Source: a virus (taxonomy: Duplodnaviria > Heunggongvirae > Uroviricota > Caudoviricetes). From it: a DNA stretch of 64,000 nucleotides. The stretch lies in IMG/VR virus record IMGVR_UViG_2526164631_000023; one strand, given 5' to 3'. Made by a program: the position numbers and the translations under genes. The notes under the pieces are model-generated. The model was not told where the DNA came from and did not search any database. It saw only the letters and a list, made by a program, of their open reading frames with translations. This document shows positions 1 through 37,999 of the stretch, piece after piece. Every line of letters begins with the position of its first letter. The stretch's first letter is position 1.

Positions 1-170
1 AGTAATCCTGGAAGCCTGCTATCGACTTCTCCCAGCGCAAGCCCTGCCAACAATGCAGTTCTTGCCATATCGCTATGTTTTTTTATCTTCTCGCTCGCCG
101 CCTTTTCATTGGCATAAGCCTCTGGGCGAAGATAAATCATCACTTTCTTACGTTCCTGAGACATGGACAT
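1..170 (-). CDS. parR: ParR-like centromere-binding protein, N-terminal part only (gene runs off the window start)
   Basis: Minus-strand ATG at 170-168 with GAGG 4 nt upstream; translation MSMSQERKKVMIYLRPEAYANEKAASEKIKKHSDMARTALLAGLALGEVDSRLPGLL; ARTALLAGLAL resembles R1 ParR; lies immediately downstream of parM. Confidence 0.55.
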   Translation of the reverse strand, partial: MSMSQERKKVMIYLRPEAYANEKAASEKIKKHSDMARTALLAGLALGEVDSRLPGL

Positions 171-176
171 ACCTCG

Positions 177-1157
177 TTAACCGATTGCTTTCAGGCCATG
201 AACAAGAGCAAGTTGCGGGTCATCCGCCACGAAGAAACGGTCATCACGAATATTAACTTGCTCGCGAATTGCATCTGCCACCAGCGGTGCGCCACCACCG
301 ATCACCATGACATGCGTATATCCTTTAAAGTCGCCAATCACATCAAGAACGCGGGTACGCAGACGGTCAATGCTTGCGGCAATGGCCTTTTTCACATCAC
401 CAATCGCTGATGGGTCATTGATATTGTCGTTCAGATAATCTTCATCGTGGCGGTTAATAATGAGCTGATCAACATTGTAATTTGACGTTTCGGTATTGGC
501 TCTGGCAAGTGCTTGCCTTACTTCCCTGGTAACCAGAGAGACGCCAAGATTCGAATCGCCAAAAACACGGGAAACTGCCGTCATTTGCCCGGCGACCATT
601 GAAACATCAAGGGTAGTTCCACCCAAATCGACGATAAGAACAGAATGGGCAGGGTTCAGATTGTCGCACAGGCCAATTCCTGCCGGAATAGACTCCGGGC
701 GTACCGTAACTTTCTTAATCGTGAACACATTGCCTTTATTCAGCGTGACGGGGCGCATAAGGCTGGCTTTCTTGCGCTCGATGTTATCGAGATTGTATTG
801 CGCGTCGTCGTCGTAAAACTCCGCCAGAGGCAGCGTGACCACAATTTCTACTTCCTGCGGCTCAATGCCACTTGTCAGCAGGGCATGGTGAACAGCCAGG
901 ACGTTAAGCGGGCTGTATTGCCATTCCACGTTATTCGTCGGCAGAACATCTGGCGAGATCAAATCATACGAATACTTTTCGTCGTCAATGACATAGTTAA
1001 ACGGCTTGCCAGCACAAAATGTTGCTGACCATCCGCGCTTAAAGCTGTTAGGGCTGATGTGAGTGCGAGTTTCCCCGTCGTGCTCCCACAGCATTTTGAT
1101 ATTGGTTGAACCATCATCGATAAAAATGCGCATCTTCTTGCTCCACTTCTGAGACAC
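177..1157 (-). CDS. parM: ParM/StbA actin-like plasmid segregation ATPase
   Basis: 326-aa ORF; N-terminus MRIFIDDGSTNIKMLWEHDG...ISPNSFKRGW...WQYS..AVHHALLTSG matches ParM (R1) signature motifs. Confidence 0.85.
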   Translation of the reverse strand: MSQKWSKKMRIFIDDGSTNIKMLWEHDGETRTHISPNSFKRGWSATFCAGKPFNYVIDDEKYSYDLISPDVLPTNNVEWQYSPLNVLAVHHALLTSGIEPQEVEIVVTLPLAEFYDDDAQYNLDNIERKKASLMRPVTLNKGNVFTIKKVTVRPESIPAGIGLCDNLNPAHSVLIVDLGGTTLDVSMVAGQMTAVSRVFGDSNLGVSLVTREVRQALARANTETSNYNVDQLIINRHDEDYLNDNINDPSAIGDVKKAIAASIDRLRTRVLDVIGDFKGYTHVMVIGGGAPLVADAIREQVNIRDDRFFVADDPQLALVHGLKAIG

Positions 1158-1158
1158 A

Positions 1159-1314
1159 TTTGAGAATCAAAATGCAATTTTAAAAGAGAAGCACCCAAAA
1201 ATCCACACCAAAAGAGATAAAAAAGAGTGATTATTGAGTTCATTTTGAGAATATCTTAATCACCCAATGAATGATGGTCTGACAGTGAGATTTATTTGAG
1301 AATGAATTGAGAAT
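1159..1314. repeat. parC-like centromere/promoter iterons (TTGAGAAT at least 4 copies)
   Basis: TTGAGAAT at about 1159, 1245, 1296 and 1307 in the region upstream of parM, divergent from the PAAR-like gene. Confidence 0.4.
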
Positions 1315-1399
1315 ACAAAAATATTCCGAAATTTAACTCTCAGTTTGAATGACGAAATAACAAAGTGATGACAATAGGAGGATAACCAGGAGGTGAAGA

Positions 1400-1684
1400 A
1401 TGAGCGCAATAGCCACCAGCGACACCCTTTGTTCTGGTCACGGAGGATTTCCGCCGCGACTGGTAGCTGAAACTGTTCCCTGGTTCACCGTTAACGGTAA
1501 GCCAATTGTTGTAGATGGTGCCATGTTTCCCAGTCACACTGACGGTAACAGTGCACATCCAGGGGCAGCTGTATCGACGCGAGTATGGTTTTCGATAGGT
1601 GGAAAGGGAGTTGTCTGTGTAGGCGATCCGCTTTCTTGTGGTTCTGTTATCGCCAACGGCGAGGATATTTTTCAGGTTGCATAA
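1400..1684 (+). CDS. PAAR-like (spike-tip) domain protein
   Basis: 94 aa; motifs CSGHGG, VNGKPIVVDG, GDPLSCGSVIANG resemble PAAR/DUF4150 repeats; RBS GGAGGTGAAG upstream. Confidence 0.45.
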   Translation: MSAIATSDTLCSGHGGFPPRLVAETVPWFTVNGKPIVVDGAMFPSHTDGNSAHPGAAVSTRVWFSIGGKGVVCVGDPLSCGSVIANGEDIFQVA

Positions 1685-2487
1685 TGCTTGATTCAATAGG
1701 TGAAGTTAAAGCCTTCAAAATTCTGTCAGATGCCGGTATCTCTACACCAGAATCTATAACCATAAGCCGGGCAGCGTCTGTAAAAGCCTCATCACTCGCC
1801 AGCGCCATACAGGGAATAGTTCACGCCGATAAAACCTATCCTGATTCTGTTTCGGCCTGGACTACTCAATTGCTTGGCTTTTCTGAACAGCTAAATGAGG
1901 CCAGCAAAGCGTCTTCATTACTGGCTGATTCTCTTTCCCCATACACCAAGCCATCAGAGCTGTTACAGATGAAGATTGGCTGGGAATGCTACGTAAAAGG
2001 TAACGAGCTGACCCCCATACCTGCTTTCGCCCTTGTTGAGGGGATGGGGAATGTTTCCATTCCGCAATCTCTAACGGACGCATTGACGGCGCTAAAACTT
2101 GATGCTCTGAAAACCGCCATGAACGCCATTAACGCAAAAATAGAAGCTGCTGGAAGTGCTGGTGGTGATAGCAATGGTGGACAGGGTGGTGCTGGGGGCG
2201 CTCAGGCTCCAGTCATTACTCAGGATGAAATTGAAGCTTTACGGGAAGCAGTGACAGCCGCCGAAGTTTTACTCTCCGAAATTAACTCAGCAAGTGAGAG
2301 TGTCGTAGCCCTTACAGGTCGCATTAAAACGTCAACCACTCAGGCAACCAAAGGTTTAGAGAACGCTGTCGCCATCACGTTAACTGGTTCTCTACTGGAT
2401 GATGCAGTAATGAGTCCGGCAATCAGTTTAATCATGCCACAAGGCGTTATCGATGCGCTCCAAAAGAACACCAAAAAGGAACCATAG
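1684..2487 (+). CDS. hypothetical protein (267 aa), start overlaps the PAAR-like stop (ATAATG)
   Basis: ORF track 1585..2487; in-frame ATG at 1684 coupled to the upstream stop; Ala/Ser/Gly-rich, no recognised motif. Confidence 0.4.
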   Translation: MLDSIGEVKAFKILSDAGISTPESITISRAASVKASSLASAIQGIVHADKTYPDSVSAWTTQLLGFSEQLNEASKASSLLADSLSPYTKPSELLQMKIGWECYVKGNELTPIPAFALVEGMGNVSIPQSLTDALTALKLDALKTAMNAINAKIEAAGSAGGDSNGGQGGAGGAQAPVITQDEIEALREAVTAAEVLLSEINSASESVVALTGRIKTSTTQATKGLENAVAITLTGSLLDDAVMSPAISLIMPQGVIDALQKNTKKEP

Positions 2488-2557
2488 CAACACCACTTAG
2501 GAACACAAAAGGATGCGAATTGGTACATGTTTAACACCAAAAATGAACCTGGAGAGG

Positions 2558-3016
2558 ATGGTTTTGAAAAAGATAATTTTGATTGTAATTGCGCTTTTAG
2601 CCATTTCTGGAATTTACCGAACAACGACGGCAGTTATCGAACACATCAGGTATGTCCGATCGCTTGAAGACTCAAAATCACAACTGGAAAGCACGAACAA
2701 CACGCTTTCTACCGCATTACAGTTAAGTGAGAACGCTCGCTCAGCCATGCTGACCGAAAACGAAAGAATTAAAGCACTGGAAAAGGAGTACCAGCGCAAA
2801 ACAGCAGAACTGAATGCCAACCTAATCAAACAACGAGAGGAAAGCCAGAATGAAATCACTCGCCTTGAAAATGCGTTGCGCCGTGCTGGGATTAACGATG
2901 TGCGTGTGCCTGATGACGTTATCAGGATGCAGCGGGAACGGGCAAAAGCCATCAACCAGCGTGCCAGTGAAAATTACCGTAGAAGCCACCAGCAAGCCGC
3001 AGGCAAATCTGATTGA
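2558..3016 (+). CDS. Rz-like i-spanin (N-terminal TM plus coiled coil)
   Basis: ORF 2513..3016; ATG 2558 follows GGAGAGG; MVLKKIILIVIALLAISGIY TM helix then Q/E/R-rich coiled coil. Confidence 0.5.
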   Translation: MVLKKIILIVIALLAISGIYRTTTAVIEHIRYVRSLEDSKSQLESTNNTLSTALQLSENARSAMLTENERIKALEKEYQRKTAELNANLIKQREESQNEITRLENALRRAGINDVRVPDDVIRMQRERAKAINQRASENYRRSHQQAAGKSD

Positions 3017-3182
3017 TTACTCCCCTTGTTTAGTGCCAGAAGACACGCCAGTGCTGTTAAACAAGTATCCGACATACGCTGAACAGTTATTCAGCACGAT
3101 CGACGAATGCAACCAACGAAACGCACTGAATAACCAAAGAAACAGGGAGATTTGGGAAGGGAAGGGGGATCAAGGCTCCTGA
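2850..3182 (+). CDS. Rz1-like o-spanin lipoprotein, out-of-frame overlap with Rz and extending 166 bp past the Rz stop (alternative start 2871)
   Basis: Signal peptide with lipobox LSGC (MRCAVLGLTMCVCLMTLSGCSG); Pro-rich mature part; overlapped spanin architecture. Confidence 0.45.
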   Translation: MKSLALKMRCAVLGLTMCVCLMTLSGCSGNGQKPSTSVPVKITVEATSKPQANLIDYSPCLVPEDTPVLLNKYPTYAEQLFSTIDECNQRNALNNQRNREIWEGKGDQGS

Positions 3183-3628
3183 AGCCAGATGTCCTGGCTG
3201 TCAGCTTCTTCGAAACCGTGACAGACGTTAAAGTCACTCAAACGATACTGACGCTGACGGCCCCTATTTCGCTCATGCCAATGCATATATCCACCAGCAA
3301 ATGCCAGCGGACAATCGCTATAGTCTATGTAACCAATACCATTCCCCAAACGTGCTTCGCGCGCACCAGCTTTCCAGGACAGTAGAAAAGAGTCACGATC
3401 CGCCAGCATAACAACAAAATCGTCCGGATCTCCGATACAGTGAAGAATACCTGCCTTACATAACTGCTTGAGCGCTTTTGACTGGCTCAGGATGTCTTCT
3501 CCGTAATACTGAAAACAATCATCAACAACAGCGGGATAGCCTGTCGGGGGATTCAGGCTGGTTGGTATAGCTGACGCGATCGCCAGCATTAAGCGATATT
3601 GTGTTTTTGATGGGTTGACGTGACTCAT
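3170..3628 (-). CDS. hypothetical protein (152 aa), second gene of a divergent two-gene operon
   Basis: ORF track; 16-bp gap to the upstream gene; convergent with and overlapping the Rz1 3' end. Confidence 0.4.
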   Translation of the reverse strand: MSHVNPSKTQYRLMLAIASAIPTSLNPPTGYPAVVDDCFQYYGEDILSQSKALKQLCKAGILHCIGDPDDFVVMLADRDSFLLSWKAGAREARLGNGIGYIDYSDCPLAFAGGYMHWHERNRGRQRQYRLSDFNVCHGFEEADSQDIWLQEP

Positions 3629-3644
3629 TTTGTCCCTTGTTTAC

Positions 3645-4037
3645 TCATTGTCGCCATGCATTTTTTAACTCAGGAATATCTGCCATTTCAATTAACTTGC
3701 GAAGTCCAGCACTGACTTTCCCATTGCCAACCATAGCAAGCCAATCTCTTACAGCTTTCGGCATGTAGAGCGTTGCAGTTACCGGCTCTTCAACCCTGGC
3801 AGGACATCCGCATACAGGCCATTTAATTGATTCCATAACTTCGGATGCCGGGGTGAGGGCGGGGACATTGAGTATATCTCTACCAGAAAACTGGATAACG
3901 ATCCGTTCAGCGAGCGAGAGTATCTCACTTTCGGCAAGAATTGATGCCAACTGCGCCTCAACAAGAAAGCGACTTGTTGTGTTCAGAGAGTGGCTCTTAG
4001 CGCCATTTTTATACGAAACAAAGATTCGATACGCCAT
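3645..4037 (-). CDS. hypothetical protein (130 aa)
   Basis: ORF track; TGTGTTAGAAA motif 14 bp upstream of its start codon. Confidence 0.4.
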   Translation of the reverse strand: MAYRIFVSYKNGAKSHSLNTTSRFLVEAQLASILAESEILSLAERIVIQFSGRDILNVPALTPASEVMESIKWPVCGCPARVEEPVTATLYMPKAVRDWLAMVGNGKVSAGLRKLIEMADIPELKNAWRQ

Positions 4038-4050
4038 AACTCTAATGATT

Positions 4051-4061
4051 TGTGTTAGAAA
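4051..4061 (+). promoter_or_regulatory. TGTGTTAGAAA regulatory motif copy followed by TAAAAT
   Basis: ATTTGTGTTAGAAAACTAAAATTAAATCACA between the divergent minus operon and the capsid-like gene. Confidence 0.4.
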
Positions 4062-4195
4062 ACTAAAATTAAATCACATAACAACATGAGTGTTAATATA
4101 TTTTATTTTACTAAACCTATTGACTAAATCACAAAGTAGGTATTGTTAGCCCGTCAAAAGAACCTTCACGCCGCGCCCGAATTTAGGGCTTAACC

Positions 4196-5893
4196 GTGAA
4201 TAAAAACATTCAGCCAGCTCGTGATCGCGAGCGCGAGATTATGAATCGGGCGGCAAGCGTCATGGCTATGACCGTCGATCCGACCACCGATGCAGCAGGC
4301 AACATGATTGCTGACCAGGCAGTAATGATGGAAAACCTGGATAAAGCAATCCAGAAAGTGCCTATGTTTGAAGGCGTAAATCCAGAGGTCGCTCGTCAGA
4401 TCACTGGTGGGTGGGCTATGTCTCTGCATGAGTATAAACGTCAACATGGTCATTACCCGGCAAGTGACATCCTGGCGAACGCACACATGGCTCTTGAGCG
4501 CCTGATGACTGAATGTGCCAGTGATACCCATGAAGGCACGGGTAAGGCAATGTTTGAGTCTGTCGCGCAATCAATGCGTAGCTCTGACGGCGTAATGAAA
4601 GTTGCTCAATATGCTGCTCTAATTCTGCCTGCCTCTCTGGGCGCTGCTACCAGTGATGCCTGTACTTTTGTTCCTTGTGATCGTGACGAGTCAAATATTT
4701 ATGAACTGGTCAACGTAGCAGGCACAAAATTCGGCACCTTCAACCAAGGTGACGAACTGAATATGCAGTCAGCTGGTGTTTATTCTCAAATGAAGCGCCT
4801 GTATGCCCTTTCCACTAAAGGGGATGGCAGCACCAAAACCTTCCAGTTCAACATCCAAAATTTTGAGGGACAATCCTGCCCGCTTCGCGCTGGTTATAAC
4901 AAACTGCTGATCAACCGCAAACCGTCCAAAGTTGACGACGGCGATGGCAACCTTTATTTCAATGCTAAAGACAGCAAAGGTAATGCTTTCTCAGCGACTG
5001 CCAAAGTTGCCTATGACACTGGTGTCATTGACATTACATTTACCCAGGCTCCGCCAGAAGGTACTGAAATTGCTGTTCAGGTCGAAATTAACATCGAGCG
5101 CAATCCAAGCCTGATTCCGGTGATCAACCAGGCTATGCGTAAGTACGAAGTTCGTCCGTCCCAGTACGTACTTGCTTCCGAACACACGGTAATGTCCGCA
5201 TCCGATTTAAGCCGTGAGCACGGCCTTGAATTAGCGGCACTTCAGTTCTCCGCGATGCGCAACTGGATCTCCCATGAAACCGACATCATGCGTCTGCGCA
5301 CCCTGGTATTCCATACCGTTTATGGTCGTGAATTTGATGTGGCTCTGCCGGAAGCTCAAAACTATGAGTCCTGGGTCGGTCTCCTGCGTCACGTAGTAAA
5401 CGCTCTGTCTCAAGAAATGGCAAATCGTACCCTGACAACGGGTATTCGTGGCGGCTTTGCTGGTAGTGACGCCGCGAACTTCCTGCGCTCTCTGCCTCCA
5501 CAGCACTTCCAGATCGCACCAGGTTACGTTCAGTCGCCGTATGTACAGTACATCGGCACCCTGTTTGGCACGATTCGTATTTACGAAGTGCCGCAACCTG
5601 TCTGTGAGCAATTCCAGGCACAGGGATATGACTTCGGGCTGGATGACATCTTCTTCTATGGGCGTGGCGAAGGCATCGGTAAAGCCGGTCTGATTGCTGG
5701 TGATGCAGTCCCAGCAATCCCTTACGTTCACGAAACCAATCCGTCTCTCGTTAACCGTACCACTCTCTGGGGCAGTGCCATCAACGAAGTACATCCTCGC
5801 AACGGTGAAAACTACTTCACCCGCCTGCGTCTGACTCGTGCCAAAGAAGGTGCTATCGACATGCTGACAGGCAAGGTTAACGAAAAAAAGTGA
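4196..5893 (+). CDS. large virion structural protein, possibly major head protein (P1 gp23-like size)
   Basis: 565 aa; position upstream of an Ig-like protein and tail sheath; assignment by size and context only. Confidence 0.35.
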   Translation: MNKNIQPARDREREIMNRAASVMAMTVDPTTDAAGNMIADQAVMMENLDKAIQKVPMFEGVNPEVARQITGGWAMSLHEYKRQHGHYPASDILANAHMALERLMTECASDTHEGTGKAMFESVAQSMRSSDGVMKVAQYAALILPASLGAATSDACTFVPCDRDESNIYELVNVAGTKFGTFNQGDELNMQSAGVYSQMKRLYALSTKGDGSTKTFQFNIQNFEGQSCPLRAGYNKLLINRKPSKVDDGDGNLYFNAKDSKGNAFSATAKVAYDTGVIDITFTQAPPEGTEIAVQVEINIERNPSLIPVINQAMRKYEVRPSQYVLASEHTVMSASDLSREHGLELAALQFSAMRNWISHETDIMRLRTLVFHTVYGREFDVALPEAQNYESWVGLLRHVVNALSQEMANRTLTTGIRGGFAGSDAANFLRSLPPQHFQIAPGYVQSPYVQYIGTLFGTIRIYEVPQPVCEQFQAQGYDFGLDDIFFYGRGEGIGKAGLIAGDAVPAIPYVHETNPSLVNRTTLWGSAINEVHPRNGENYFTRLRLTRAKEGAIDMLTGKVNEKK

Positions 5894-6005
5894 TGGTGGC
5901 GAACGTGTCGGTATCACCAACGTCACTTGACGTAGATGAAGGTGAAACTATCGCCGCGAACACTTCAAAGGCACAGAAAAAACAAAGCAGAAGTAAGGCA
6001 AAAAC

Positions 6006-6026
6006 ACGCCCCTGATTAAGGGGCGT
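6006..6026 (+). terminator. stem-loop terminator after the capsid-like gene
   Basis: ACGCCCCTGATTAAGGGGCGT hairpin. Confidence 0.4.
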
Positions 6027-6038
6027 TCAGGAGAAAAA

Positions 6039-6317
6039 ATGGCAAACATTCAAGTAACTATCACGCCATCTGACGCAACAGACAAATCTTTCACTGTTGA
6101 GTCAGATCACCCTGATATTGTCCGGGTTGATGGCACTACATGTACCGCTCTTAAGGTCGGGCAGGCAGTGCTGACAATCAAAACAAATGACGGCAATAAA
6201 ACCGCACAGTGCACAGTCACTGTTAGGGAGGCACATAAAAGCGTAAGCACCGTCAGTGTTGAACCAACTACGAAAGAAGTTACCGTAGGCGATAACTTCA
6301 CGGTAAGCCAATCCTGA
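6039..6317 (+). CDS. bacterial Ig-like (Big_2-type) domain protein
   Basis: 92 aa; pattern VTITPSDAT...VGQAVLTIKT...TVTV typical of Big_2 fold. Confidence 0.5.
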   Translation: MANIQVTITPSDATDKSFTVESDHPDIVRVDGTTCTALKVGQAVLTIKTNDGNKTAQCTVTVREAHKSVSTVSVEPTTKEVTVGDNFTVSQS

Positions 6318-6384
6318 TCAGAGGCTGCCCATTAACCGTGGGTAGCCTTGCCTCGTTCTCTCGCTTTAGAGGATAAGAACCAGC

Positions 6385-8043
6385 ATGAATAAGATTAGTT
6401 TTTCGGTAGGGCAGGCAGCTGGCGTTGCTGTAATGTCAGTAAATGCTGACGCTACCCTCACCAATACCAGCGGTGGCGCATCCGTCTTTGCTGGGCTTGT
6501 AATATCGCGTCGTGGCGCACCGGGTAAGGTACTGAAAGTTGACGATACGACTTATCAAAGCGTATTAGGTTCACCGATTCACCCTCGCCAGGGCGCGGCA
6601 TTTGAACCATATCGCCACGTGGAGCGTGCAGTAAAAGGCGGCTCTGGATATGTCGTTCGAGTTTGCGCTAAAGACATGAAGGTGCCGGGTATTTCTGTTT
6701 CCGTTGTGGGCAAAGCAAAAGCGGCAAAGGCGAGCAAAGAACTTTCCGTTGAACCTACTGAAACCACAGTAAATCCAGGTGACACATTAAGCGTTGGTGT
6801 TGCTTCAACTGCAACGACTCAATCAGTGACCTTCACACCCAAAGAGACGCCCCAGATTAAAGGTGGAGAGAAGGCATTATTCTTCATCAAAGATGGTGAT
6901 GCATCTCAAAATCGCACGTTATCACTAACTCGCGATGATGAAGAAAGCGAACTCTTTACGCTGACGCTGAAAGAAAAACAAACCGATGGGTCCATTGAGG
7001 TGCTGGAAAGCCACCAAGTGTCTTTCAATCCAGAAGGCACCAACGACATGGGCCAACCAGCATGGATTCCGACACTGCTTGAAAGCCAGTCCTCTCGCAT
7101 TGGTGCCGTACTGGCAGATAATGCAGAAGCATCCGCTGCTCAACTCATTTTTGAGGATGTAGCTTTTGAAGGTGGTACTGATGGAAATCTGTCCGAAATT
7201 AACGCTGCAGACTATCTGGAAGCATTAAAGGTTCTCGAAGCTTCAGAGGTTAATTACACCGCATTGCTGTCATTGGGTTGTTATGACGCATCCGCCTTAG
7301 CCGCAATCAAAAAGCTGGCTGAAGATGTTCGCGTAGACATGTTCTATGACCTGAAGGGCAACCAGACACCTGAAAACGCTATTTCAGAAGCGAAAAGCCA
7401 TAGTTTTGGCGGCTCACATCAACCAAGCCGTTACTACTTCCCGCTCTCCTGCCGAGATACCTTCACTGGGATGAATGTCGTCTATGGCATTAGTTGCGAC
7501 GCATTCGTAGCAAAAGCAAAAGGGGTAGCGCTGGTACCGGATGTTGGTGGTTGGCATTACGCACCGGCAGGTATATCACGCGCGATTATTGATCGACAGA
7601 ACATTGCCCGAATTCCAAATATCGGTGCAGTTGATCGTGAAGCGTTCGTTCTTGCGCGCATTAATCCGGTTTCAGTTGCTGCTGATGGGTCCGTTTACAT
7701 TGACGACTCTTTAACAACTTACAGCAAAAACAACTATCTGCGATTCCAGCATGTGTCTTCCTTGATGAACGCCATCGCCAGAGATTTCTATGAAGTAGCT
7801 CAGGCGATTAAGCACGAACCGGATGGCATTACCAAAGAAACGCTAATGAAAGCAATGACTGAATTGCTTGACCGTTACGTTGCAGCCGGTGCGCTGGTTA
7901 CTCCACGTGACAAGTCCCAGGGTGAAGATCCATACGTTGTTCAGGTTGTCCAAAAGGACATCGATCTGTGGGAAGTGTCCTGGTCTGTTTGTCCGACCGG
8001 TACAGCTCGCCGAATCGTCGGTAAGCCAATTCTGATGCGCTGA
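6385..8043 (+). CDS. contractile tail sheath protein with inserted Ig-like segment
   Basis: 552 aa; C-terminal region (GWHYAPAG...AFVLARINPVSVAADGSVYIDDS) resembles the P2 FI/T4 gp18 sheath family. Confidence 0.55.
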   Translation: MNKISFSVGQAAGVAVMSVNADATLTNTSGGASVFAGLVISRRGAPGKVLKVDDTTYQSVLGSPIHPRQGAAFEPYRHVERAVKGGSGYVVRVCAKDMKVPGISVSVVGKAKAAKASKELSVEPTETTVNPGDTLSVGVASTATTQSVTFTPKETPQIKGGEKALFFIKDGDASQNRTLSLTRDDEESELFTLTLKEKQTDGSIEVLESHQVSFNPEGTNDMGQPAWIPTLLESQSSRIGAVLADNAEASAAQLIFEDVAFEGGTDGNLSEINAADYLEALKVLEASEVNYTALLSLGCYDASALAAIKKLAEDVRVDMFYDLKGNQTPENAISEAKSHSFGGSHQPSRYYFPLSCRDTFTGMNVVYGISCDAFVAKAKGVALVPDVGGWHYAPAGISRAIIDRQNIARIPNIGAVDREAFVLARINPVSVAADGSVYIDDSLTTYSKNNYLRFQHVSSLMNAIARDFYEVAQAIKHEPDGITKETLMKAMTELLDRYVAAGALVTPRDKSQGEDPYVVQVVQKDIDLWEVSWSVCPTGTARRIVGKPILMR

Positions 8044-8080
8044 TTTATAACCCCCGCTAAATGATGCGGGGGAGAGAGGT

Positions 8081-8821
8081 TTGAATATGAAAAATTATAC
8101 TGCTGATCCTTTTATGCGTGCGATTTTCGGTTCTGGCTGCTTTGAAAGCGGTGATAAATCCACGCAGGACAATAATGATAACGCCATGCTGGAAAGCGCA
8201 GGACAGAAAGGAAAGGACACTCAACCAAAGCCCAAAGACGACATTGAAACCGCGATGATGGAAGCGGTTGAATCCCGTGCACAAGGTGATATGCGCAGCC
8301 TGGCAGCTTCCATGCTTGCTGGTTGGGTTGAAGATGGTGATCCGGAGGCTGACTCATTTGATGCATTAGCAATCACTATGGCTGGCCTGGCTGATATCGA
8401 TGAAGACACCGATTTCACCGATGAGCAAATCGATGCTTATAATGATGCACTCGCAGCTCTTGCTGATGCAGCTGTTGCGCTTGGCGCTGATCAGGATGAT
8501 GTAACCGAAATGATCGACGATGAAGATGACTCAGCTGCCGAACGTGTTTATGACGCTCTTTCCGAAAGCGACACCGACATGATGGAAACAGCTATTGCCA
8601 TTTACACCGTTGCTGGTGGTGATAGCGCAATGCTGGAAGCGGTACGTAAAAAAGTGGTTCGTGATGGCAAGGTAACCATCATCCGTAAACGCCCGCGTCC
8701 TCGCCGCATGACGTCATTGCAAAAACAGGCGCTGAAAAAAGCACGCCGCAAAGCACATACATCCGTAGCGAATATCAACCGCAAAAAATCAATGCGCATT
8801 CGCAAAAAACGCGGTTTGTAA
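8081..8821 (+). CDS. highly acidic protein with Arg/Lys-rich C-terminal tail
   Basis: 246 aa; D/E-rich body (DIDEDTDFTDEQIDAYNDALAALADAA...) then RKRPRPRRMTSLQKQALKKARRK. Confidence 0.4.
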   Translation: MNMKNYTADPFMRAIFGSGCFESGDKSTQDNNDNAMLESAGQKGKDTQPKPKDDIETAMMEAVESRAQGDMRSLAASMLAGWVEDGDPEADSFDALAITMAGLADIDEDTDFTDEQIDAYNDALAALADAAVALGADQDDVTEMIDDEDDSAAERVYDALSESDTDMMETAIAIYTVAGGDSAMLEAVRKKVVRDGKVTIIRKRPRPRRMTSLQKQALKKARRKAHTSVANINRKKSMRIRKKRGL

Positions 8822-8870
8822 GTGACATAGGCCGTCTGCAAAGGTGGCCTCTACCTGGGAGAAATAGCGT

Positions 8871-9461
8871 TTGATTTGCGGCGCGATAATGCCTGACGGA
8901 ATAAGTCCGTTAATGAAGGTTTATATCCTCTCTTCAGAGGATATGGTCGTCGGTTATATCGGTGAAGGATCTACCGCAGAACTGTCATCAATGTGGCAAT
9001 CACCATTTGAAAACCAGTCAGTAGGAGGTTTGCTTGGTGGTATTAGCGCTGCGGCTGGCTCTCTTGCAGATACGCTTCAGACCGCAACCGGCGTAACAAC
9101 AAAAACCCTCTTCAACTCAATGCTTGTTTGGGAAGGTCAGCAACCGCCTGAATTTAATCTGGTAATTGATTTCATGGCGACAACGAACGCGCAACTTGAA
9201 GTGAACGCAGCCATTACAGCATTGCTGAAGATGGAATCGCCGGAACTGAACAATGTAGCGCCATTCGGTCGTCGCCCGGAGACAGTAACGTTAAACATAG
9301 GTAGGAACATAGCCCTTACCGACGTTGTTATCAAAAGCGTGAGTTACCAACTGGACGCCCCACGCACACCGGAAGGCTATTTCACTCATAACACGGTAAC
9401 CCTGCAATGCAGCGGAAACACCTCGATTAACCGTAGCAACATATCATCTGTTTTTGTGTAG
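8871..9461 (+). CDS. tail-associated structural protein (start possibly at the internal ATG about 8913)
   Basis: ORF track; position between sheath and tube-like gene. Confidence 0.3.
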   Translation: MICGAIMPDGISPLMKVYILSSEDMVVGYIGEGSTAELSSMWQSPFENQSVGGLLGGISAAAGSLADTLQTATGVTTKTLFNSMLVWEGQQPPEFNLVIDFMATTNAQLEVNAAITALLKMESPELNNVAPFGRRPETVTLNIGRNIALTDVVIKSVSYQLDAPRTPEGYFTHNTVTLQCSGNTSINRSNISSVFV

Positions 9462-9469
9462 GAGTATTT

Positions 9470-9961
9470 ATGTCCGGTTTTGCAAATACAAAAGCCGATA
9501 TCGCTTTTCTGAAATCCCGGTTGAACAAAAACCTGGCAGCGGGCGAAAAACTTATTGGTTCAGAATTCTGGATGACTATTAAAGGTTACGAAAAACTATC
9601 TGTACTTGTTCGTACCACTCAGTTGCCGGAAATGACTCGCGAAGACGTGGAAGACTATGGTCCTGGCGGCATGAAGATCAACCAGCACGGGCCATTGCGT
9701 AACTCAGGTGAATTCCAGGTTACCTGCTCTGAAACCATCGAAGGGGATGTTCTGGCCGCCGTAAAACAAATGGTATATGGCAAAGAATATCTGGAAATTA
9801 CCTTACAGGCAGCGGCTGAATCCAATAGCGGTAACCATAAAGGTCTGATCCGCACATATTATCACTGCAAAGTGTATTCCGACGCAGTGGACTTCTCCAC
9901 CGAAGACGTAACAGCAGTCGTTAAGCCTTCCCTGCGTATTGTTTACAACTGGGTAGAGTGA
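9470..9961 (+). CDS. putative tail tube protein
   Basis: 163 aa; size and position after sheath; weak resemblance to myovirus tube proteins. Confidence 0.35.
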   Translation: MSGFANTKADIAFLKSRLNKNLAAGEKLIGSEFWMTIKGYEKLSVLVRTTQLPEMTREDVEDYGPGGMKINQHGPLRNSGEFQVTCSETIEGDVLAAVKQMVYGKEYLEITLQAAAESNSGNHKGLIRTYYHCKVYSDAVDFSTEDVTAVVKPSLRIVYNWVE

Positions 9962-10013
9962 TCTCTTTCCCGCCCTTGTGGCGGGAACTCCTTGTATTTG
10001 AGTTGTAGGTACG

Positions 10014-10565
10014 ATGACACCAACCGAATTATTAGAAAGCGTTAAAGCACGATTTAATCCACTGCTTGTGCGTGAAGAAGAAACGCTGAAAGCCTTCCTG
10101 ATCAAAGCTCTGACCACGTATCAGGACAGGGCAGGGGTAGTGAAAACGTTAAAACTTGAAAAAGCTGGTGGTACTGCAATCCCATTACCAGAAGATTATC
10201 TCTCTCTGGTTCATGTTACCGACAACAATGGCCTGTTGGTCTATTCGGATGAATTATCCGGATTTATTGAATTAGAGCTAACAGGTTCAGAGCGCTGGCC
10301 TTTTCGAATGCTGTATCTGGTTAATCTACACGACAGAAAGCTGGATGAATGGCAAGTGCCTCCTGCAATCATTGGAATGCTGGAGGAATATCTAGAGGCG
10401 CTTATCAATGTAAGAAATGTCGCCCGGCAGCGTAGAGCGTCCATCGACGGGAAATTTGACTACTCCGATCTGCCCGATGAAGCCACGCTATATGCCCGCG
10501 TGCAGGAGATTGAGGAAAAAATGTCCTCAAACCGGGCCATTATTCCGGGGGCTACCATTTTTTAA
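10014..10565 (+). CDS. hypothetical protein
   Basis: ORF track, 183 aa. Confidence 0.35.
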   Translation: MTPTELLESVKARFNPLLVREEETLKAFLIKALTTYQDRAGVVKTLKLEKAGGTAIPLPEDYLSLVHVTDNNGLLVYSDELSGFIELELTGSERWPFRMLYLVNLHDRKLDEWQVPPAIIGMLEEYLEALINVRNVARQRRASIDGKFDYSDLPDEATLYARVQEIEEKMSSNRAIIPGATIF

Positions 10566-10580
10566 CGCTGGAGGCGCAGA

Positions 10581-11288
10581 GTGAGTATTTTCAGCAGCGT
10601 TGGTAGAACGTTGACCACCGCATTGTCATTTAACACGAAATCATTCACCAGCAACCTCATTAGCGACATTCTTGATAAAGCCATATCAGGCGGCGGGGTA
10701 AGCGGGAATTACAGTAGCGATATTGCCTACGGGAAAAATATTGTTGCTGCCGCTATGCGTATCCGTTACGCCCAGGGGTGGCAGTGGACCGTTGAAGTGG
10801 ATGGCCTGAACGGCTTCGATATGTTCGTGAAGGATATCACCTACAGCAGTGGAAACATTGAGACAGAAAGCAAGGTGATCGGCAGCGTAGAATTCAGCAA
10901 GCCAACCTATGTTAGCGCCGGACCGGTCACTATGACCGTGAGGGATACCGAAGATGGCAAGATCATGGACTGGTTCAAAGAGCGTCGTTCTCGTGTAACA
11001 AATCCTGATGGAACAATAAACCTTCCTCCGGAATATCTGATGAAAATCCGTGTCTACCGGGTAACTCAGGACGGCGGAAAAGAACTGGAAGAAGAAATGC
11101 GCGTATTTCCTACACAACTTGGGGAAATCACTCGCTCACGTGATCAGGTGTCAGAGTTCTTGTCATACCCAATCACTTTCCAGAAATACACATCTGCAGG
11201 CTCAGGTGTTTCTGCTTTGGTCAACGGTGCCGCTGGCATGGCTACAAGTGCGTTAAAGGGGGCTATCAGTGGAGTGATCAAATTCTGA
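10581..11288 (+). CDS. hypothetical protein
   Basis: ORF track, 235 aa, RBS GGAGG upstream. Confidence 0.35.
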   Translation: MSIFSSVGRTLTTALSFNTKSFTSNLISDILDKAISGGGVSGNYSSDIAYGKNIVAAAMRIRYAQGWQWTVEVDGLNGFDMFVKDITYSSGNIETESKVIGSVEFSKPTYVSAGPVTMTVRDTEDGKIMDWFKERRSRVTNPDGTINLPPEYLMKIRVYRVTQDGGKELEEEMRVFPTQLGEITRSRDQVSEFLSYPITFQKYTSAGSGVSALVNGAAGMATSALKGAISGVIKF

Positions 11289-11300
11289 AATGCTTTAATT

Positions 11301-11522
11301 ATGTGTGCTGTAGGGAAAGGTTTACGTTAAATGTGTGCTGCCGGGAAACCCCATTGCTCAAGATGTGTTGTAGAGGGAATGGTAATGGCAACATGTGTGC
11401 TGGAGGGGAATTTCGCATGTAAAGAGCGTCATTTATCCCTCCAGCACACATCTGAAATAAGCAATCCTCTGAAATTCCCTCCACCACACATCCAGACATG
11501 AAACTATCCCTTCAGCACACAT
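11301..11522. repeat. incA-like RepA iteron array (about 7 copies, 4 direct and 3 inverted)
   Basis: 19-bp units ATGTGTGCTG(N)GGGAAA at about 11301, 11331, 11362, 11392 and CAGCACACAT-type inverted copies at about 11436, 11475, 11507; matches the P1 iteron consensus. Confidence 0.7.
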
Positions 11523-12386
11523 TTAATCTGTTGGTTTAAGTTTCGGATTCCGAGAGTGAACGATAATGAAGTTTTCACGACCTTGCTTTTCAATGGTGCA
11601 ATCGAGATAACCTATTGTTTTTAACTGGTCTATAGCTTTTTTTATCGTTCTGTTTTGCTCACTTACCGATGACATCAAGGCTAATCTTTCACGTATTCTG
11701 GCAAATGAAATAGGTATTGGACGTGCCGGGAGGCTTTCTATAAAGGTATATATGGCCTGGGCTGCTTCTTTTTTAGGTAAAGCGCGAAGTGCGTGTTGCT
11801 GTAGAAGCACCCGATAGTCTAGCTGGAAGATTTCCCATAACTTGGAATCAGCCTCCAGTTCAACGACATCTGTTTCAAAGTCAAAATATCCCGTTTTAAG
11901 CAGGCCAGTATTGTAGCTTCCACGAGCACTTTTCCCTCTTTTGAATGAGATGCCTTTGTTGCGTAACCGACCTAAAGAATCGTGGATCGTGTTTCTTAAT
12001 TTCCCATCAAGTCGCTTAGATGGAAATCCGCACGCCTTTGCAAATTCTTGAAAAGAAAGGCGAATTGTATTCGATGATAAGCCATACTTGCTAAATGAGT
12101 AGATTACCCCAATCCAGACTTTGAAATCAGTATCCATGTCCAAGCGAGGGCCAGTGATCTTGATGTTGTCGTAGCCTTCTGCTTGAGCTATTTCCAATTT
12201 GGAAAAAACAGATGATGCATCTATCTCGTTGTTTTCACCCTGTTTTTTAGTTGGTTTAGGGACGAAAACACCAAGCCGCATAAGTGCGACAGGTTGAACA
12301 GTATTGTTCGAATTAACTGTTAATTCTTTAGCCTTGCTTTCAATGTCAGCATAAAGAATATCAGAGATAAATGACTTATCCATCAA
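11523..12386 (-). CDS. repA: RepA replication initiator (P1 R-replicon type)
   Basis: 287 aa; MMDKSFISDILYADIESKAKELTVNSNNTVQPVALMRLGVFVPKP... recalled as near-identical to P1 RepA; flanked by iterons on both sides. Confidence 0.85.
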   Translation of the reverse strand: MMDKSFISDILYADIESKAKELTVNSNNTVQPVALMRLGVFVPKPTKKQGENNEIDASSVFSKLEIAQAEGYDNIKITGPRLDMDTDFKVWIGVIYSFSKYGLSSNTIRLSFQEFAKACGFPSKRLDGKLRNTIHDSLGRLRNKGISFKRGKSARGSYNTGLLKTGYFDFETDVVELEADSKLWEIFQLDYRVLLQQHALRALPKKEAAQAIYTFIESLPARPIPISFARIRERLALMSSVSEQNRTIKKAIDQLKTIGYLDCTIEKQGRENFIIVHSRNPKLKPTD

Positions 12387-12447
12387 TAAGTTACCGTCAT
12401 GTTGTGAATAAAGTTTACGACAGTGGATATCCGGCTTTTTTTCCCAT

Positions 12448-12652
12448 CAGCACACATCCTACATCCCGCCAGCACACATGTAAAACCCTCCAGCACACAT
12501 ATTTTTCCCGTCAGCACACATCGTTCTCCCTCCAGCACACATCTGAATAGTGGTTAAAGCCTTATGTGGCGCGGCCTGAAGAGCTACGGGATCTATTTGG
12601 TACTATATGGATCTAATCAGGATCTATATATTGGATCTATCCTGTGGATAAA
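12448..12652. promoter_or_regulatory. oriR/incC-like origin: 5 iterons, GATC cluster and DnaA box
   Basis: CAGCACACAT at about 12448, 12469, 12491, 12513, 12534; five GATC in 12588-12650; CCTGTGGATAAAA (DnaA box) at about 12641. Confidence 0.75.
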
Positions 12653-12737
12653 AAAGAAGAATTACAAAGCTCCACCCAATTTCACACACTACCTATCCTC
12701 CAACGAATAAACAGACATCTGCTTATCGGAGGAATAC

Positions 12738-13559
12738 TTGAACATTCCAAAATTCCCATTGCCTTCCCGTCCTGAGACAGAAATTCAGTTCCACGCCCCT
12801 ACCGTGAAGGATGCGCTGAAATATTCTGACCTGAACCCGGCAGAAGATGAGGCAACTACTACAGAGTACCTTAACTCTATGCAGGATGGTGAAATTAACG
12901 ACAGTGCTTACTGGACAGTCCAAGATCGCAGAACTGCCCTTTGGTGGATATTTGTTAATTCGCGCCCCGATGCAGTAATGACCTACTCCTATGAGTGCAG
13001 TCACTGCGGTAATACGCATCATGCAGATATTAACCTGAGCGACCTGGCCCAAACAGTAGAAATACTCACTGTACCTCCTTACGTGAAAACCAACGTACCA
13101 GTAAATGGAGTACCAACTGACTGGATACTTAAACCATTAACCGGGAAAGGTGTGGAACTCCTTGAACGAATGCGAGCGTCACTTCCTGATATGAAAAGTC
13201 CCGAATACAGTGCTGGCGTAGCACGGATGCGAATTGCTGAACTCGCTTTATGCACGGCGCTTGAAGACGATCCGGAGGACTTCACGCAGGCCGCTAACCG
13301 ACGCTTTGACATCATTGAAAGCATGGCGCTTGAAACCGAATTTACTCCGCTTGTGGCTCGCATACAGCTTATGCAAAAAGACCTACGCCACGGCCTGAAA
13401 ATGTCTATTGAGAGAGGCTCAAGCCGACTGATCCTGCCTCCGCAACATTGCAAAAACGCTAAGGAGGGTGCAGATGTGACAACCACACTGTACGTCCCCT
13501 TTCTCAATAGAGAGTTTATCCCATCAATTAGATCTGAATGGATGGCTAACCATTATTAA
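12738..13559 (+). CDS. hypothetical protein with CxxC...H motif
   Basis: 273 aa; YECSHCGNTHH. Confidence 0.35.
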   Translation: MNIPKFPLPSRPETEIQFHAPTVKDALKYSDLNPAEDEATTTEYLNSMQDGEINDSAYWTVQDRRTALWWIFVNSRPDAVMTYSYECSHCGNTHHADINLSDLAQTVEILTVPPYVKTNVPVNGVPTDWILKPLTGKGVELLERMRASLPDMKSPEYSAGVARMRIAELALCTALEDDPEDFTQAANRRFDIIESMALETEFTPLVARIQLMQKDLRHGLKMSIERGSSRLILPPQHCKNAKEGADVTTTLYVPFLNREFIPSIRSEWMANHY

Positions 13560-13573
13560 CAACCTGACTCTGT

Positions 13574-24969: not shown

Positions 24970-24972
24970 ATT

Positions 24973-25500
24973 ATGCAGCATTTAAAAAATATTAAGTCAG
25001 GAAATCCAAAAACAAAAGAGCAATATCAGCTAACAAAGAATTTTGATGTTATCTGGTTATATACAGAAGACGGTAAAAACTGGTATGAGGAAGTAAATAA
25101 CTTTCAGGACGACACCATAAAGATTGTTTACGATGAAAATAATATTATTGTCGCCATCACCAAAGATGCATCCACGCTTAACCCTGAAGGTTTTAGCGTC
25201 GTTGAGGTTCCCGATATTACAGCCAACCGCCGCGCTGATGATTCAGGAAAGTGGATGTTTAAGGATGGAGCTGTAGTTAAACGGATTTATACGGCAGACG
25301 AGCAACAACAACAGGCCGAATCACAAAAGGCCGCATTGCTTTCCGAAGCTGAATCAGTCATCCAACCGCTGGAACGCGCTGTCAGGCTGAATATGGCAAC
25401 AGACGAGGAACGCACACGACTGGAAGCATGGGAACGCTACAGTGTTCTGGTCAGCCGTGCGGATACGGCAAATCCTGAATGGCCACAAAAACCAGAGTAA
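24973..25500 (+). CDS. tail fibre assembly chaperone (U/Tfa)
   Basis: 175 aa; [24 protein letters not shown]; paralogous to the inverted copy 25529..26062. Confidence 0.75.
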
Positions 25501-25505
25501 AAATT

Positions 25506-25525
25506 AAGGCCCGATAGCGGGCCTT
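25506..25525. terminator. bidirectional hairpin between the convergent chaperone genes
   Basis: AAGGCCCGATAGCGGGCCTT. Confidence 0.5.
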
Positions 25526-25528
25526 CTC

Positions 25529-26062: not shown

Positions 26063-26064
26063 CG

Positions 26065-27735: not shown

Positions 27736-27759
27736 TGTATTAATGTTGGTTTAAGAGAA
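27734..27759 (+). promoter_or_regulatory. crossover site A (core TT at 27746-27747), same orientation as site 1
   Basis: AATGTATTAATG TT GGTTTAAGAGAA; right half identical to site 1, left half degenerate. Confidence 0.5.
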
Positions 27760-37873: not shown

Positions 37874-37999
37874 ATTAATTTGATGTTTCTAAATCGGAAT
37901 GTATGATCTGCATCATCGACTGAAGTCATCCATTGCTGAAATTTTTAGTTGATCTTCCATGTTTTCAGGCTTATATTCATGTCGTCGTAGCAAATTCTG

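Follow-up and report, generated by a model that had tools for sequence, protein, structure and literature searches.

We analysed a 64,000-nucleotide stretch of viral DNA (IMG/VR record IMGVR_UViG_2526164631_000023, here called the window) and found that the region at its start is very probably the plasmid-maintenance region of a D6-like (P1g2 group) E. coli phage-plasmid, built as dispersed modules: a swappable P1-type replicon, a type II parMRC system and, past the window start, a probable type Ib partition cassette. As judged from sequence, from which we infer the biochemical activities, rep and par functions appear to be dispersed here, unlike in the contiguous rep-par block of P1. This layout is the norm in the D6-like family and is not new; the sole unusual feature of the window's element is a P1-like replicon at the site where D6 carries its own. 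The features are collected in Table 1.

Table 1. Maintenance features and neighbouring genes in the window
Feature	Position	Strand	Basis
parR, 5' part, codons 1-54 of 112	1-164	minus	tblastn with full ParR of NZ_CP066033.1
parM, actin-like partition ATPase, 318 aa	177-1133	minus	Pfam StbA_N 231 bits; ParM_N (ParM C-terminal domain) 187 bits
Predicted parC-like centromere/operator, ten 11-bp-phased repeats, WGAG core	1148-1316		phasing statistics
upfC homologue, PAAR-like small protein, 94 aa	1400-1684	plus	P1 UpfC homology
upfB homologue, next in virion/unknown-function operon	1684-2487	plus	D6 annotation 'similar to P1 gene upfB'
Tail tube gene tub	10581-11288	plus	D6 annotation 'major tail tube structural protein, similar to P1 tub'; ORF list
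incA-like control array, 7 iterons	11300-11523		aligns with P1 incA
Exchangeable replicon cassette, without similarity to phage D6	11316-12681		blastn of window against D6
repA, P1-type replication initiator, 286 aa	11523-12383	minus	P1/P7 RepA homology; Pfam Rep3_N 28.6 bits
DnaA box TTATTCACA, repA-proximal side of origin	12403-12411	minus	sequence match
Origin (incC-like) iterons, 5 x 19 bp, spacing 21-22 bp	12440-12543		motif search
GATC (Dam) cluster, 4 sites as GGATCTA repeats	12590-12637		aligns with P1 oriR GATC cluster
Consensus DnaA box TTATCCACA, outer end of origin	12643-12651	minus	sequence match, P1 alignment
pmgB homologue, right neighbour of replicon	12738-13559	plus	D6 annotation; ORF list

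The window carries a D6-like element

Window bases 1-13000 share 97.9% nucleotide identity with phage D6 across 89% of the stretch, and in PLSDB at least 80% of these bases are matched by 107 plasmids. The closed 97-kb plasmid NZ_CP066033.1 is 99.97% identical to, and colinear with, window bases 1-22004; by blastn, colinearity with D6 is limited to 1-11315 and 12682-16000. Gene order in phage D6 and the D6-like plasmid prophages (MF356679/NC_050154, pYU39_89, NZ_CP066033.1) is that of the window, and the order common to the window and D6 runs parR-parM, upfC-upfB ... 23-22-21-pmgG-bplB-pmgC-tub, replicon, pmgB-sit. The earlier note on this DNA had presented the combination of replicon and distant partition cassette as special to this element; it is instead standard in the D6-like (P1g2) family, the dispersed arrangement being already annotated in the D6 GenBank record and described for the D6-like plasmid pYU39_89 (PMC6799933). 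Relative to P1, the proposed mosaic arrangement was borne out: the rep-par block of P1 lies between gene 23 and upfA, whereas in the window repA sits between tub and pmgB, and parMR beyond upfC.

The far end of the window (61741-64000) holds a hybrid junction, at which IS100 links plasmid DNA to a chromosomal GTPase flank. Given this IS100 plasmid-chromosome join, the element may be integrated in the window's source and its maintenance genes dispensable there.

A P1-type replicon is probably exchanged as a cassette at the tub/pmgB site

RepA of the window is 83.7% identical to P1/P7 RepA across 283 aa, and the closest RepA found is that of Cronobacter phage JK004 (92.6% identity). The stretch from origin to repA (window ~11507-12651) is colinear with P1 at ~71% nucleotide identity, and the 14 annotated iterons of P1 give the same consensus, GATGTGTGCTGGAGGGAAA, as the iterons of the window. 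At no more than one mismatch, CAGCACACAT occurs 11 times in the replicon region and a single time outside it (one mismatch, at 20650), a total of 12 that was reached in 0 of 100 shuffles. In the incA-like array four iterons (11300-11410) point one way and three (11434-11523) the opposite way, the one at 11362-11380 being degenerate. The GATC cluster has four sites where the density of the window predicts ~0.2 per 60 bp. Furthermore, the origin iterons enclose the single sigma-70-like site on the repA strand (12484-12456), in a position that corresponds to that of P1 PrepA within P1 iterons 10-12. The P1-type oriR-repA-incA unit proposed earlier, with five upstream and about seven downstream iterons, GATC cluster and DnaA box, was thus recovered at or near the positions first given for it. 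Its left neighbour, tub, stops 12 nt short of the first iteron and therefore no parAB follows incA, in agreement with the claim that parAB(-parS) is missing beside this replicon; moreover, neither the window nor NZ_CP066033.1 gave a match to ParA or ParB of the P1 type (type Ia).

This module (11300-12651) is a P1/IncY-type theta replicon in which, by homology to P1, RepA monomers would bind the five origin iterons and DnaA the two flanking boxes, while Dam methylation of the GATC cluster would license origin opening. RepA would repress its own promoter inside the iterons, and the seven downstream iterons would limit copy number via titration and handcuffing. The element is predicted to be incompatible with P1 (IncY).

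Nine PLSDB records hold this cassette with 99% identity or more, the next class lying at 60-80%. Among the ~117 D6-like plasmids with common flanks, the P1-type replicon is in the minority, with 9 carriers. At the tub/pmgB site, where the window has the P1-type cassette, D6 and ~90% of the relatives instead encode a Rep_3 initiator (251 aa) unrelated to it, with TGAGGGCAA-type iterons, which in D6 read TGAGGGCAA..TTACAC. D6 retains two leftover P1-type iterons at the junction, directly after the tub stop codon. Two such remnants together with an unrelated Rep_3 at the same site argue for a cassette swap, the direction of which would be indicated by these two iterons only. The replicon module would then be a self-contained cassette that is exchanged as a unit at this site.

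A type II partition cassette is divergently joined to a virion gene

ParM of the window matches the R1 ParM structures 1mwk and 4a62 over its full length (E ~1e-110) and is ~53.6% identical to ParM/StbA as annotated on numerous plasmids of enterobacteria. Residues 1-54 of NZ_CP066033.1 ParR match window positions 164-3 at 100% (tblastn), the rest lying beyond the window start; at full length, this ParR has matches to Pfam Plasmid_stab_B and to structure 2jd3, the ParR of pB171 (E 1.6e-6). The parMR cassette that had been placed at 1-1314 is a genuine type II parMRC, 10.2 kb from repA, with the qualification that the window start cuts its parR short.

The parC-like repeats form clusters at 1150/1161, 1185, 1213-1246 and 1286-1308. 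The sequence TTGAGAAT is found in four of the copies, all within 1160-1314, and just once more in 64 kb. Six pairs of cores are spaced by exactly 11 bp, and the other distances between 5 and 21 bp gave no pair; six pairs were reached in 0 of 5000 dinucleotide shuffles (mean 0.12, maximum 3). In Proteus and Providencia, 70%-identical parM genes likewise have CTCW cores at 11-bp phase on their upstream side. A 266-bp spacer separates parM from the divergent PAAR-like gene, and the divergent pairing noted earlier holds, the gene being a homologue of P1 UpfC (56% identity, E 2e-42) that scores 26.4 bits against Pfam PAAR_motif (cut-off 27) and E 2.9e-8 against NCBIfam T6SS_PAAR_dom; a Pfam search with the upfB homologue gave no match. 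As for shared ParR control of the virion gene, which the earlier note raised as a possibility, the sole plus-strand sigma-70-like site uses an iteron as its -35 hexamer, and equally good matches are as frequent in shuffles.

This module (1-1316, continuing past the window start) would act as a type II parMRC system: ParR would bind the ten phased repeats upstream of parM, repress the par promoter and cap ParM filaments, which would push sister plasmids apart.

Near-identical plasmids carry a second, probable type Ib partition cassette

In NZ_CP066033.1 the gene of a ParF-like type Ib ATPase, overlapped by that of a small protein, follows ~290 bp downstream of parR, with a terminator after parR separating the type II and type Ib operons. 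This cassette lies outside the window, just past its start; we read it in near-identical plasmids and infer it for the window's source. It looks complete, in the order repeat array, ATPase, overlapping 94-aa protein, second repeat array; the parA stop overlaps the orf61 start, and phased GGTRY/GTRCC repeats flank both sides. The 210-aa ATPase matches NCBIfam ParA_partition over its full length at 165 bits (equivalog cut-off 180) and, also at full length, the TP228 ParF structure 4dzz (E 6.6e-19); it is ~45% identical to annotated plasmid ParA genes. The 94-aa protein had no Pfam or PDB sequence match, and similarity to ParG or other solved proteins was not detectable in its sequence. Its AF2 model (mean pLDDT 66) has a disordered N-terminus and a strand-helix-helix C-terminus, and the top Foldseek matches are all RHH proteins, including ParG, at non-significant E >0.7; from the model, the partner is a probable RHH protein. 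'cop, parA, stbB and parM' are listed for a D6-like plasmid (PMC6799933).

Alternative explanations of the partition setup

That ParMR-parC is the sole partition system, compensating in a one-off mosaic for the loss of parAB from a P1 replicon, is distinctly unlikely. The near-identical plasmid does lack any P1-type ParA or ParB, and parMRC is intact with a well-formed predicted centromere; against this stand the full-length ParF-like ATPase, small partner gene and flanking repeat arrays downstream of parR in the relatives, and the recurrence of the dispersed layout in phage D6 and more than 100 plasmids, already described (PMC6799933). Partition by the parMR cassette alone, as the earlier note had it, is thus probably not the case; the ParAB cassette elsewhere on the replicon that the note had named as contrary evidence is found in part, as the type Ib cassette of the near-identical plasmid, with no P1-type ParA/ParB there. 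Rather unlikely, too, is a setup in which only one par cassette is active, for example with the type Ib locus partitioning and parMRC a relic, or the reverse. Either arrangement is conceivable, and the two ParF-like allele classes among D6-like plasmids (at least 99% identity in 7 records, 80-90% in 110) suggest ongoing selection for specificity there. However, the ORFs of both cassettes are all intact, and 112 records have a parM of 95% identity or more. The window and D6 also have the parC repeats in common, their parC regions being 97% alike. In pB171, par1 is active as well as par2. Loss assays showed that the type Ib par2 locus of pB171 stabilises plasmids by itself (PMC4270457). Our preferred reading is that the element probably has a double partition locus like that of pB171.

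The TTGAGAAT repeats sit between parM and a virion gene, and one of them supplies the -35 hexamer of the weak plus-strand promoter-like site, as might be expected of operators at which a phage regulator (a C1-type repressor or late activator) controls the divergent virion operon. We consider it very unlikely that they serve this role rather than that of a ParR centromere: ten copies in strict 11-bp phase are the signature of R1-type parC, and the same repeat type accompanies the parM genes of Proteus and Providencia, upstream of which there is no divergent small gene but a 270-aa ORF in the same direction. Moreover, the window contains no P1 C1 operator at up to 3 mismatches and no P1-type late-promoter pattern, and TTGAGAAT is found just once elsewhere. 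An assembly chimera, with the parMR end derived from a different co-resident replicon than repA, is extremely improbable. The one hybrid junction of the window lies at its opposite end, the parM-to-repA interval is free of repeats and IS, and the colinearity with the closed plasmid and the complete D6 genome record spans or flanks the replicon; the other half of the note's contrary evidence, such a chimera, is countered by the D6 record and more than 100 closed plasmids, which have parMR and the structural genes on one molecule.

Comparison with known systems

The replicon resembles the oriR-repA-incA (IncY) unit of P1/P7 in its five origin iterons at 21-22 bp, identical 19-bp consensus, GATC cluster, DnaA boxes at both ends, promoter within the iterons and downstream control array with iterons in both orientations. 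The 'full P1 layout' claimed earlier holds in that all elements are present, and differs in number: four GATC sites compared with five in P1, seven incA-like iterons (4+3) compared with nine (6+3), and one outer DnaA box where P1 has two in tandem. Whereas the P1 replicon is followed by parA-parB-parS, that of the window lacks them and lies between the tail genes tub and pmgB. In Cronobacter phage JK004, which has the rep cassette alone in common with the window, repA in the P1 arrangement is followed by unannotated ORFs of 415 and 300 aa, which match P1 parA-parB in position and size, and then by gene 23.

The type II cassette resembles R1 parMRC and pB171 par1 in its order parC-parM-parR and the 11-bp-phased direct repeats upstream of parM, and the N-terminus of the window element's ParR matches the pB171 ParR structure. 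In the window, unlike in R1 and pB171 par1, a gene of the phage virion runs divergently from the cassette. R1 parC consists of two clusters of five repeats, whereas the window repeats are clustered 2+1+4+3 and their sequence, WTTGAGAAW, differs from that of R1. A type II cassette beside a small ParA (~210 aa) with a small partner recalls pB171 (par1 type II, par2 type Ib) and TP228 parFGH; as in these, the small ParA of the D6-like relatives has no N-terminal DNA-binding domain, and repeat arrays lie up- and downstream, as in pB171 parC1-parA-parB-parC2. Unlike in pB171, where the par loci are divergent and parC1 is common to both, the two par operons stand in tandem on one strand.

Architecture of the P1-type replicon

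We analyzed the oriR-repA-incA cassette between tub and pmgB, the features of which are listed together with those of the partition loci in the table. The repA product matched Pfam Rep3_N and was most similar to RepA of Cronobacter phage JK004 (92.6% identity), while SSU5-type initiators were ~49% and those of further P1-like phages (RCS47, SJ46) ~41% identical to it. The stretch comprising the origin and repA (~11507-12651) is colinear with P1 at ~71% nucleotide identity, the incA-like arrays of the window and P1 could be joined in a global alignment, and the consensus of the 12 window iterons, GATGTGTGCTGGAGGGAAA, is the same as that of the 14 annotated P1 iterons. The origin cluster holds four GATC sites as compared to a window-average density of ~0.2 per 60 bp. 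Furthermore, the repA strand has a single sigma-70-like site (12484-12456), which falls within the origin iterons at the same place as P1 PrepA. The full P1 layout described in an earlier note, with five iterons, GATC sites and a DnaA box upstream of repA and seven iterons downstream, is present. By homology with P1, RepA and DnaA would initiate replication at the origin, RepA would repress its own expression, and the downstream iterons would control copy number. Because the iteron consensus is identical to that of P1, the replicon is predicted to replicate autonomously and to confer IncY-type incompatibility.

P1 parAB-parS is absent beside incA, as had been claimed: the stop codon of the tail-tube gene tub at 11288 is 12 nt short of the first iteron, and ParA and ParB of P1 and JK004, used as tblastn queries, had no match (E <= 0.01) in the window or in the near-identical closed plasmid NZ_CP066033.1. 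On the other side of the cassette, pmgB starts at 12738.

Coordinates of replication and partition features (window positions unless another record is named)
Feature	Position	Strand	Description
parR	starts 164, runs past window start		codons 1-54 of 112 present; directly downstream of parM
parM	177-1133	minus	318 aa; Pfam StbA_N and ParM_N (ParM C-terminal domain)
WGAG cores (n=10)	1150, 1161, 1185, 1213, 1224, 1235, 1246, 1286, 1297, 1308		
upfC homologue	1400-1684	plus	divergent from parM; 56% identity to P1 UpfC
incA-like iterons (n=7)	11300-11523		four in one orientation, three opposite
repA	11523-12383	minus	286 aa; 83.7% identity to P1/P7 RepA over 283 aa
Second DnaA box	12403-12411		TTATTCACA
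Origin iterons (n=5)	12440-12543		19 bp; spacing 21-22 bp
GATC (Dam) sites (n=4)	12590-12637		within 48 bp, each in GGATCTA
Consensus DnaA box	12643-12651		TTATCCACA
Type Ib cassette	NZ_CP066033.1 76226-77696 (L002, the same plasmid, 1355-2825)		just upstream of window position 1
P1-type iteron pair in D6	D6 ~14308-14350		corresponds to window 11296-11318; between tub stop and Rep_3 replicon

An actin-type partition cassette with phased repeats

The type II parMRC cassette (1-1316) proposed in the earlier note was confirmed by structure and family matches of ParM, by the part of ParR present in the window, and by phased parC repeats. ParM aligned along its entire length with the R1 ParM structures (E ~1e-110) and is ~54% identical to annotated ParM/StbA genes of many enterobacterial plasmids. 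The parR codons in the window are identical to those of the 112-aa ParR of NZ_CP066033.1, and this full-length protein matched Pfam Plasmid_stab_B and the pB171 ParR structure 2jd3 (E 1.6e-6). Repeats of TTGAGAAT had been noted near parM; four copies do lie in 1160-1314, with one elsewhere in the window, and they form part of a larger pattern of ten phased WGAG cores. The spacing is exactly 11 bp for six pairs of cores, and no pair has any other spacing of 5-21 bp, a number of phased pairs that was reached in 0 of 5000 dinucleotide shuffles (mean 0.12, maximum 3). The parC region is 97% identical to that of Escherichia phage D6.

At 70% identity, parM relatives were found at three loci on Proteus and Providencia contigs, a sample sufficient for analyzing repeat phasing and too small for covariation. 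Upstream of these genes, CTCW cores occur at 11-bp phase (contig positions 3205-3500), with four to five phased pairs per locus that were equaled in 0 of 5000 shuffles. The upstream neighbor there is a co-directional 270-aa ORF, not a divergent small gene. Since the same repeats precede parM next to a different neighbor, they travel with parMR, and conservation of this type of parC thus reaches beyond the D6 family. The WGAG repeats are thus best read as parC, the predicted centromere bound by ParR. We also considered the TTGAGAAT repeats as C1 operators; this candidate was dropped, as the P1 C1 operator consensus had no match at <=3 mismatches.

The parC repeats occupy the 266-bp spacer between parM and the divergent upfC homologue, and 83 bp separate the end of the outermost repeat from the UpfC start codon. 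UpfC is annotated in the P1 record as PAAR-like and similar to T4 gp5.4; the window homologue scored 26.4 bits against Pfam PAAR_motif (cut-off 27), and its NCBIfam PAAR match (E 2.9e-8) scored far under the cut-off. We searched the spacer and its surroundings for expression signals. One weak promoter-like site on the plus strand has its -35 hexamer in a repeat (TTGAGA), but matches of this kind are equally common in shuffled sequences, and a sigma-70 scan of 1-1700 returned three sites where 2.5 were expected. A P1-type late promoter pattern derived from the annotated LPsit and LP23 had two off-target matches in the window and none upstream of the structural operons, and a k-mer comparison of upstream regions revealed no motif in common. 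The earlier note had raised the possibility that the divergent region serves both ParR autoregulation and the virion gene; on sequence grounds, such shared control is a hypothesis.

A second, probable type Ib partition cassette adjoins parR in relatives

In NZ_CP066033.1 and D6, a hairpin-T-run terminator lies behind parR and separates it from a gene for a 210-aa P-loop ATPase located ~290 bp past parR, and a 94-aa ORF has a GTG start that overlaps the ATPase stop codon. Against NF041546 (NCBIfam 'ParA family partition ATPase'), the ATPase scored 165 bits across all 203 model positions, relative to an equivalog cut-off of 180, and it matched the TP228 ParF structure 4dzz over its full length (E 6.6e-19). 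It has the size of the small Walker-type ParA proteins (~200 aa), is without an N-terminal DNA-binding domain, and shares ~45% identity with ParA genes annotated on numerous plasmids; alleles in PLSDB comprise 7 records at >=99% identity and 110 at 80-90%. Arrays of GGTRY/GTRCC motifs, many of them spaced at multiples of 11 bp, are present on both flanks of the operon, and pB171 par2 likewise has a repeat-flanked parC1-parA-parB-parC2 layout (PMC4270457).

The 94-aa protein had no sequence match in Pfam, NCBIfam or PDB and 11 close homologues among 5.8 billion proteins. Its AlphaFold2 model (mean pLDDT 66) has a disordered N-terminal part followed by a C-terminal strand or extended segment and two helices. 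The top Foldseek matches of this model were ribbon-helix-helix proteins, with ParG at rank 2 and none of the matches significant (E > 0.7). The 94-aa protein is a candidate ribbon-helix-helix partner of the ATPase.

The D6 record flags the ATPase as a possible ParA, and for the D6-like plasmid pYU39_89 the partition genes have been given as 'cop, parA, stbB and parM', in addition to repB with iterons, repL, cre/lox, phd-doc and higAB (PMC6799933). From the anatomy of the type Ib and type II cassettes and from this prior annotation, we consider a double par locus comparable to that of pB171 most likely for this element. Because the type Ib cassette precedes position 1, we can only infer the double locus for the window's own source. 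ParMR had been put forward as the provider of partition; the parMRC cassette is real, but it probably does not act alone given the type Ib ATPase in relatives. The earlier note had also held that its scheme would fail if a ParAB cassette existed elsewhere on the replicon: no ParA or ParB of the P1 type was found in the window or in NZ_CP066033.1, but relatives do carry the ParF-like type Ib cassette.

The layout is shared among D6-like elements

Comparison of bases 1-13000 with phage D6 (MF356679/NC_050154) gave 97.9% identity with 89% of the length covered. Identity was 97.9% over 1-11315 and 90% over 12682-16000, and gene order is the same. In PLSDB the same bases matched 127 plasmids, 107 of them with a coverage of >=80%. 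The top match was NZ_CP066033.1, a 97,453-bp circular E. coli plasmid that is 99.97% identical to bases 1-22004 and that, together with D6, is a P1g2 phage-plasmid representative according to Pfeifer and Rocha (PMC10879196). The observations of the earlier note on the elements of the replicon and the par cassette were accurate. Its view of the arrangement as a mosaic holds relative to P1, with the type II par locus at a distance, but the layout is a family trait of D6-like elements, fixed across the family and already known and annotated.

We rejected the interpretation that the window was simply cut from NZ_CP066033.1, since IS100 is placed differently, the tail-fiber segment has another orientation, and the sequences diverge at the chromosomal end of the window. 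In NZ_CP066033.1, IS100 interrupts a head-protein region at window 31502-31506 (5-bp alignment overlap), a site that is intact in the window, where IS100 instead lies at 61741-63693; the remaining 307 bp up to position 64000 belong to a chromosomal yfjP-like GTPase gene. The junction is identical to pDEC12A-1 (NZ_CP077480.1) on the plasmid side and, on the other, to the chromosome (NZ_CP077479.1) of the strain that harbors this plasmid, E. coli O111:H2 12A. With plasmid and chromosome flanking IS100, the source appears to be either a plasmid-chromosome cointegrate formed through IS100 or the product of a misassembly at this element.

The segment ~21853-28055, next to a small serine recombinase gene, is inverted and rearranged relative to NZ_CP066033.1, which fits a Cin-type invertible tail-fiber segment. 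A P1-type immunity I region, made up of the C4 antisense RNA and the a1/b1 element it targets, was identified at 37971-38177 (Rfam RF01695, 71.9 bits; RF03163, 52.2 bits). Five tRNA genes (Arg-TCT, Tyr-GTA, Thr-TGT, Ser-TGA, Met-CAT) are located at 51293-52587, and in relatives a glutaminyl-tRNA synthetase gene is found just outside the window.

The replicon behaves as an exchangeable cassette

Homology between D6 and the window stops at 11315 and resumes from 12682 with none in between; the D6-type Rep_3 initiator that serves as the 'repB' typing marker is accordingly not in the window, which has no D6 similarity over 11316-12681, and D6 was absent among the tblastn matches of the window RepA. 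At the tub|pmgB site D6 instead encodes an unrelated 251-aa Rep_3 initiator. The iterons that accompany it (TGAGGGCAA..TTACAC) number five on the upstream side, with several more downstream. Directly after the tub stop codon of D6, however, TATGTGTGCTGGAGGG is followed 7 nt on by TTTCCCGTCAGCACCCAC, and these are two P1-type iterons in inverted orientation. Based on these two repeats only, the pair is likely a remnant of a P1-type cassette that was replaced by the D6-type cassette, and it might still titrate P1 RepA.

Approximately 117 PLSDB plasmids share the cassette flanks. The replicon cassette of the window was found at >=99% identity in 9 PLSDB records, and the next class comprises 432 records at 60-80% identity, with an empty gap between the classes; among the matches listed, this class consists mostly of repA-annotated plasmids, consistent with P1/IncY-type replicons. 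JK004 carries its RepA in the P1 arrangement: repA is followed there by unannotated ORFs of 415 and 300 aa, with the positions and sizes of P1 parA-parB, and then by gene 23. The closest RepA thus sits beside ORFs that resemble parA-parB in position and size, and the rep cassette accordingly travels separately from the par genes.

A broader proposal joins two processes: P1- and D6-type replicon cassettes would be swapped through recombination at or inside the iteron arrays and, in addition, ParR-parC would set expression of the divergent UpfC/PAAR operon. We regard this combination as improbable. If it were true, iteron recombination would let a phage backbone move to another incompatibility group (IncY-like in this case), the backbone that switches its replicon would keep a separately placed, backbone-specific double partition locus, and ParR-parC control of the UpfC operon would tie plasmid segregation to the control of virion genes.

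Implications and comparison with P1

The locus represents a clean natural case of replication and partition modules that evolve independently in phage-plasmids, and it leaves the current understanding of how such modules work unchanged. What is added here is the IncY-like cassette in a D6 backbone (9 of ~117 plasmids), the likely P1-type iteron remnants in D6, the 11-bp phasing of the parC repeats, and the complete-looking anatomy of the type Ib neighbor. D6-like elements have been screened by their own repB marker (bioRxiv 10.1101/2025.09.12.675607). An IncY-related initiator, whose DNA sequence has ~71% identity to that of P1, is present in ~8% of PLSDB D6-like plasmids, and such copies could presumably escape both the D6 repB and the IncY markers. 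The IncY-like subgroup is predicted to be incompatible with P1, and the probable pairing of type II and type Ib par systems in one phage is open to testing.

The maintenance modules are of the same kinds in P1 and in the D6 family and are placed separately in the latter. In P1 the order is sit-pmgB-tub-pmgC ... bplB-pmgG-21-22-23 / parS-parB-parA-incA-repA-oriR / upfA-mlp-ppfA-upfB-upfC, whereas in the D6 family it is parR-parM / upfC-upfB ... 23-22-21-pmgG-bplB-pmgC-tub / incA-repA-oriR / pmgB-sit. Furthermore, incA of P1 has nine iterons (6+3) compared to seven (4+3) in the window.
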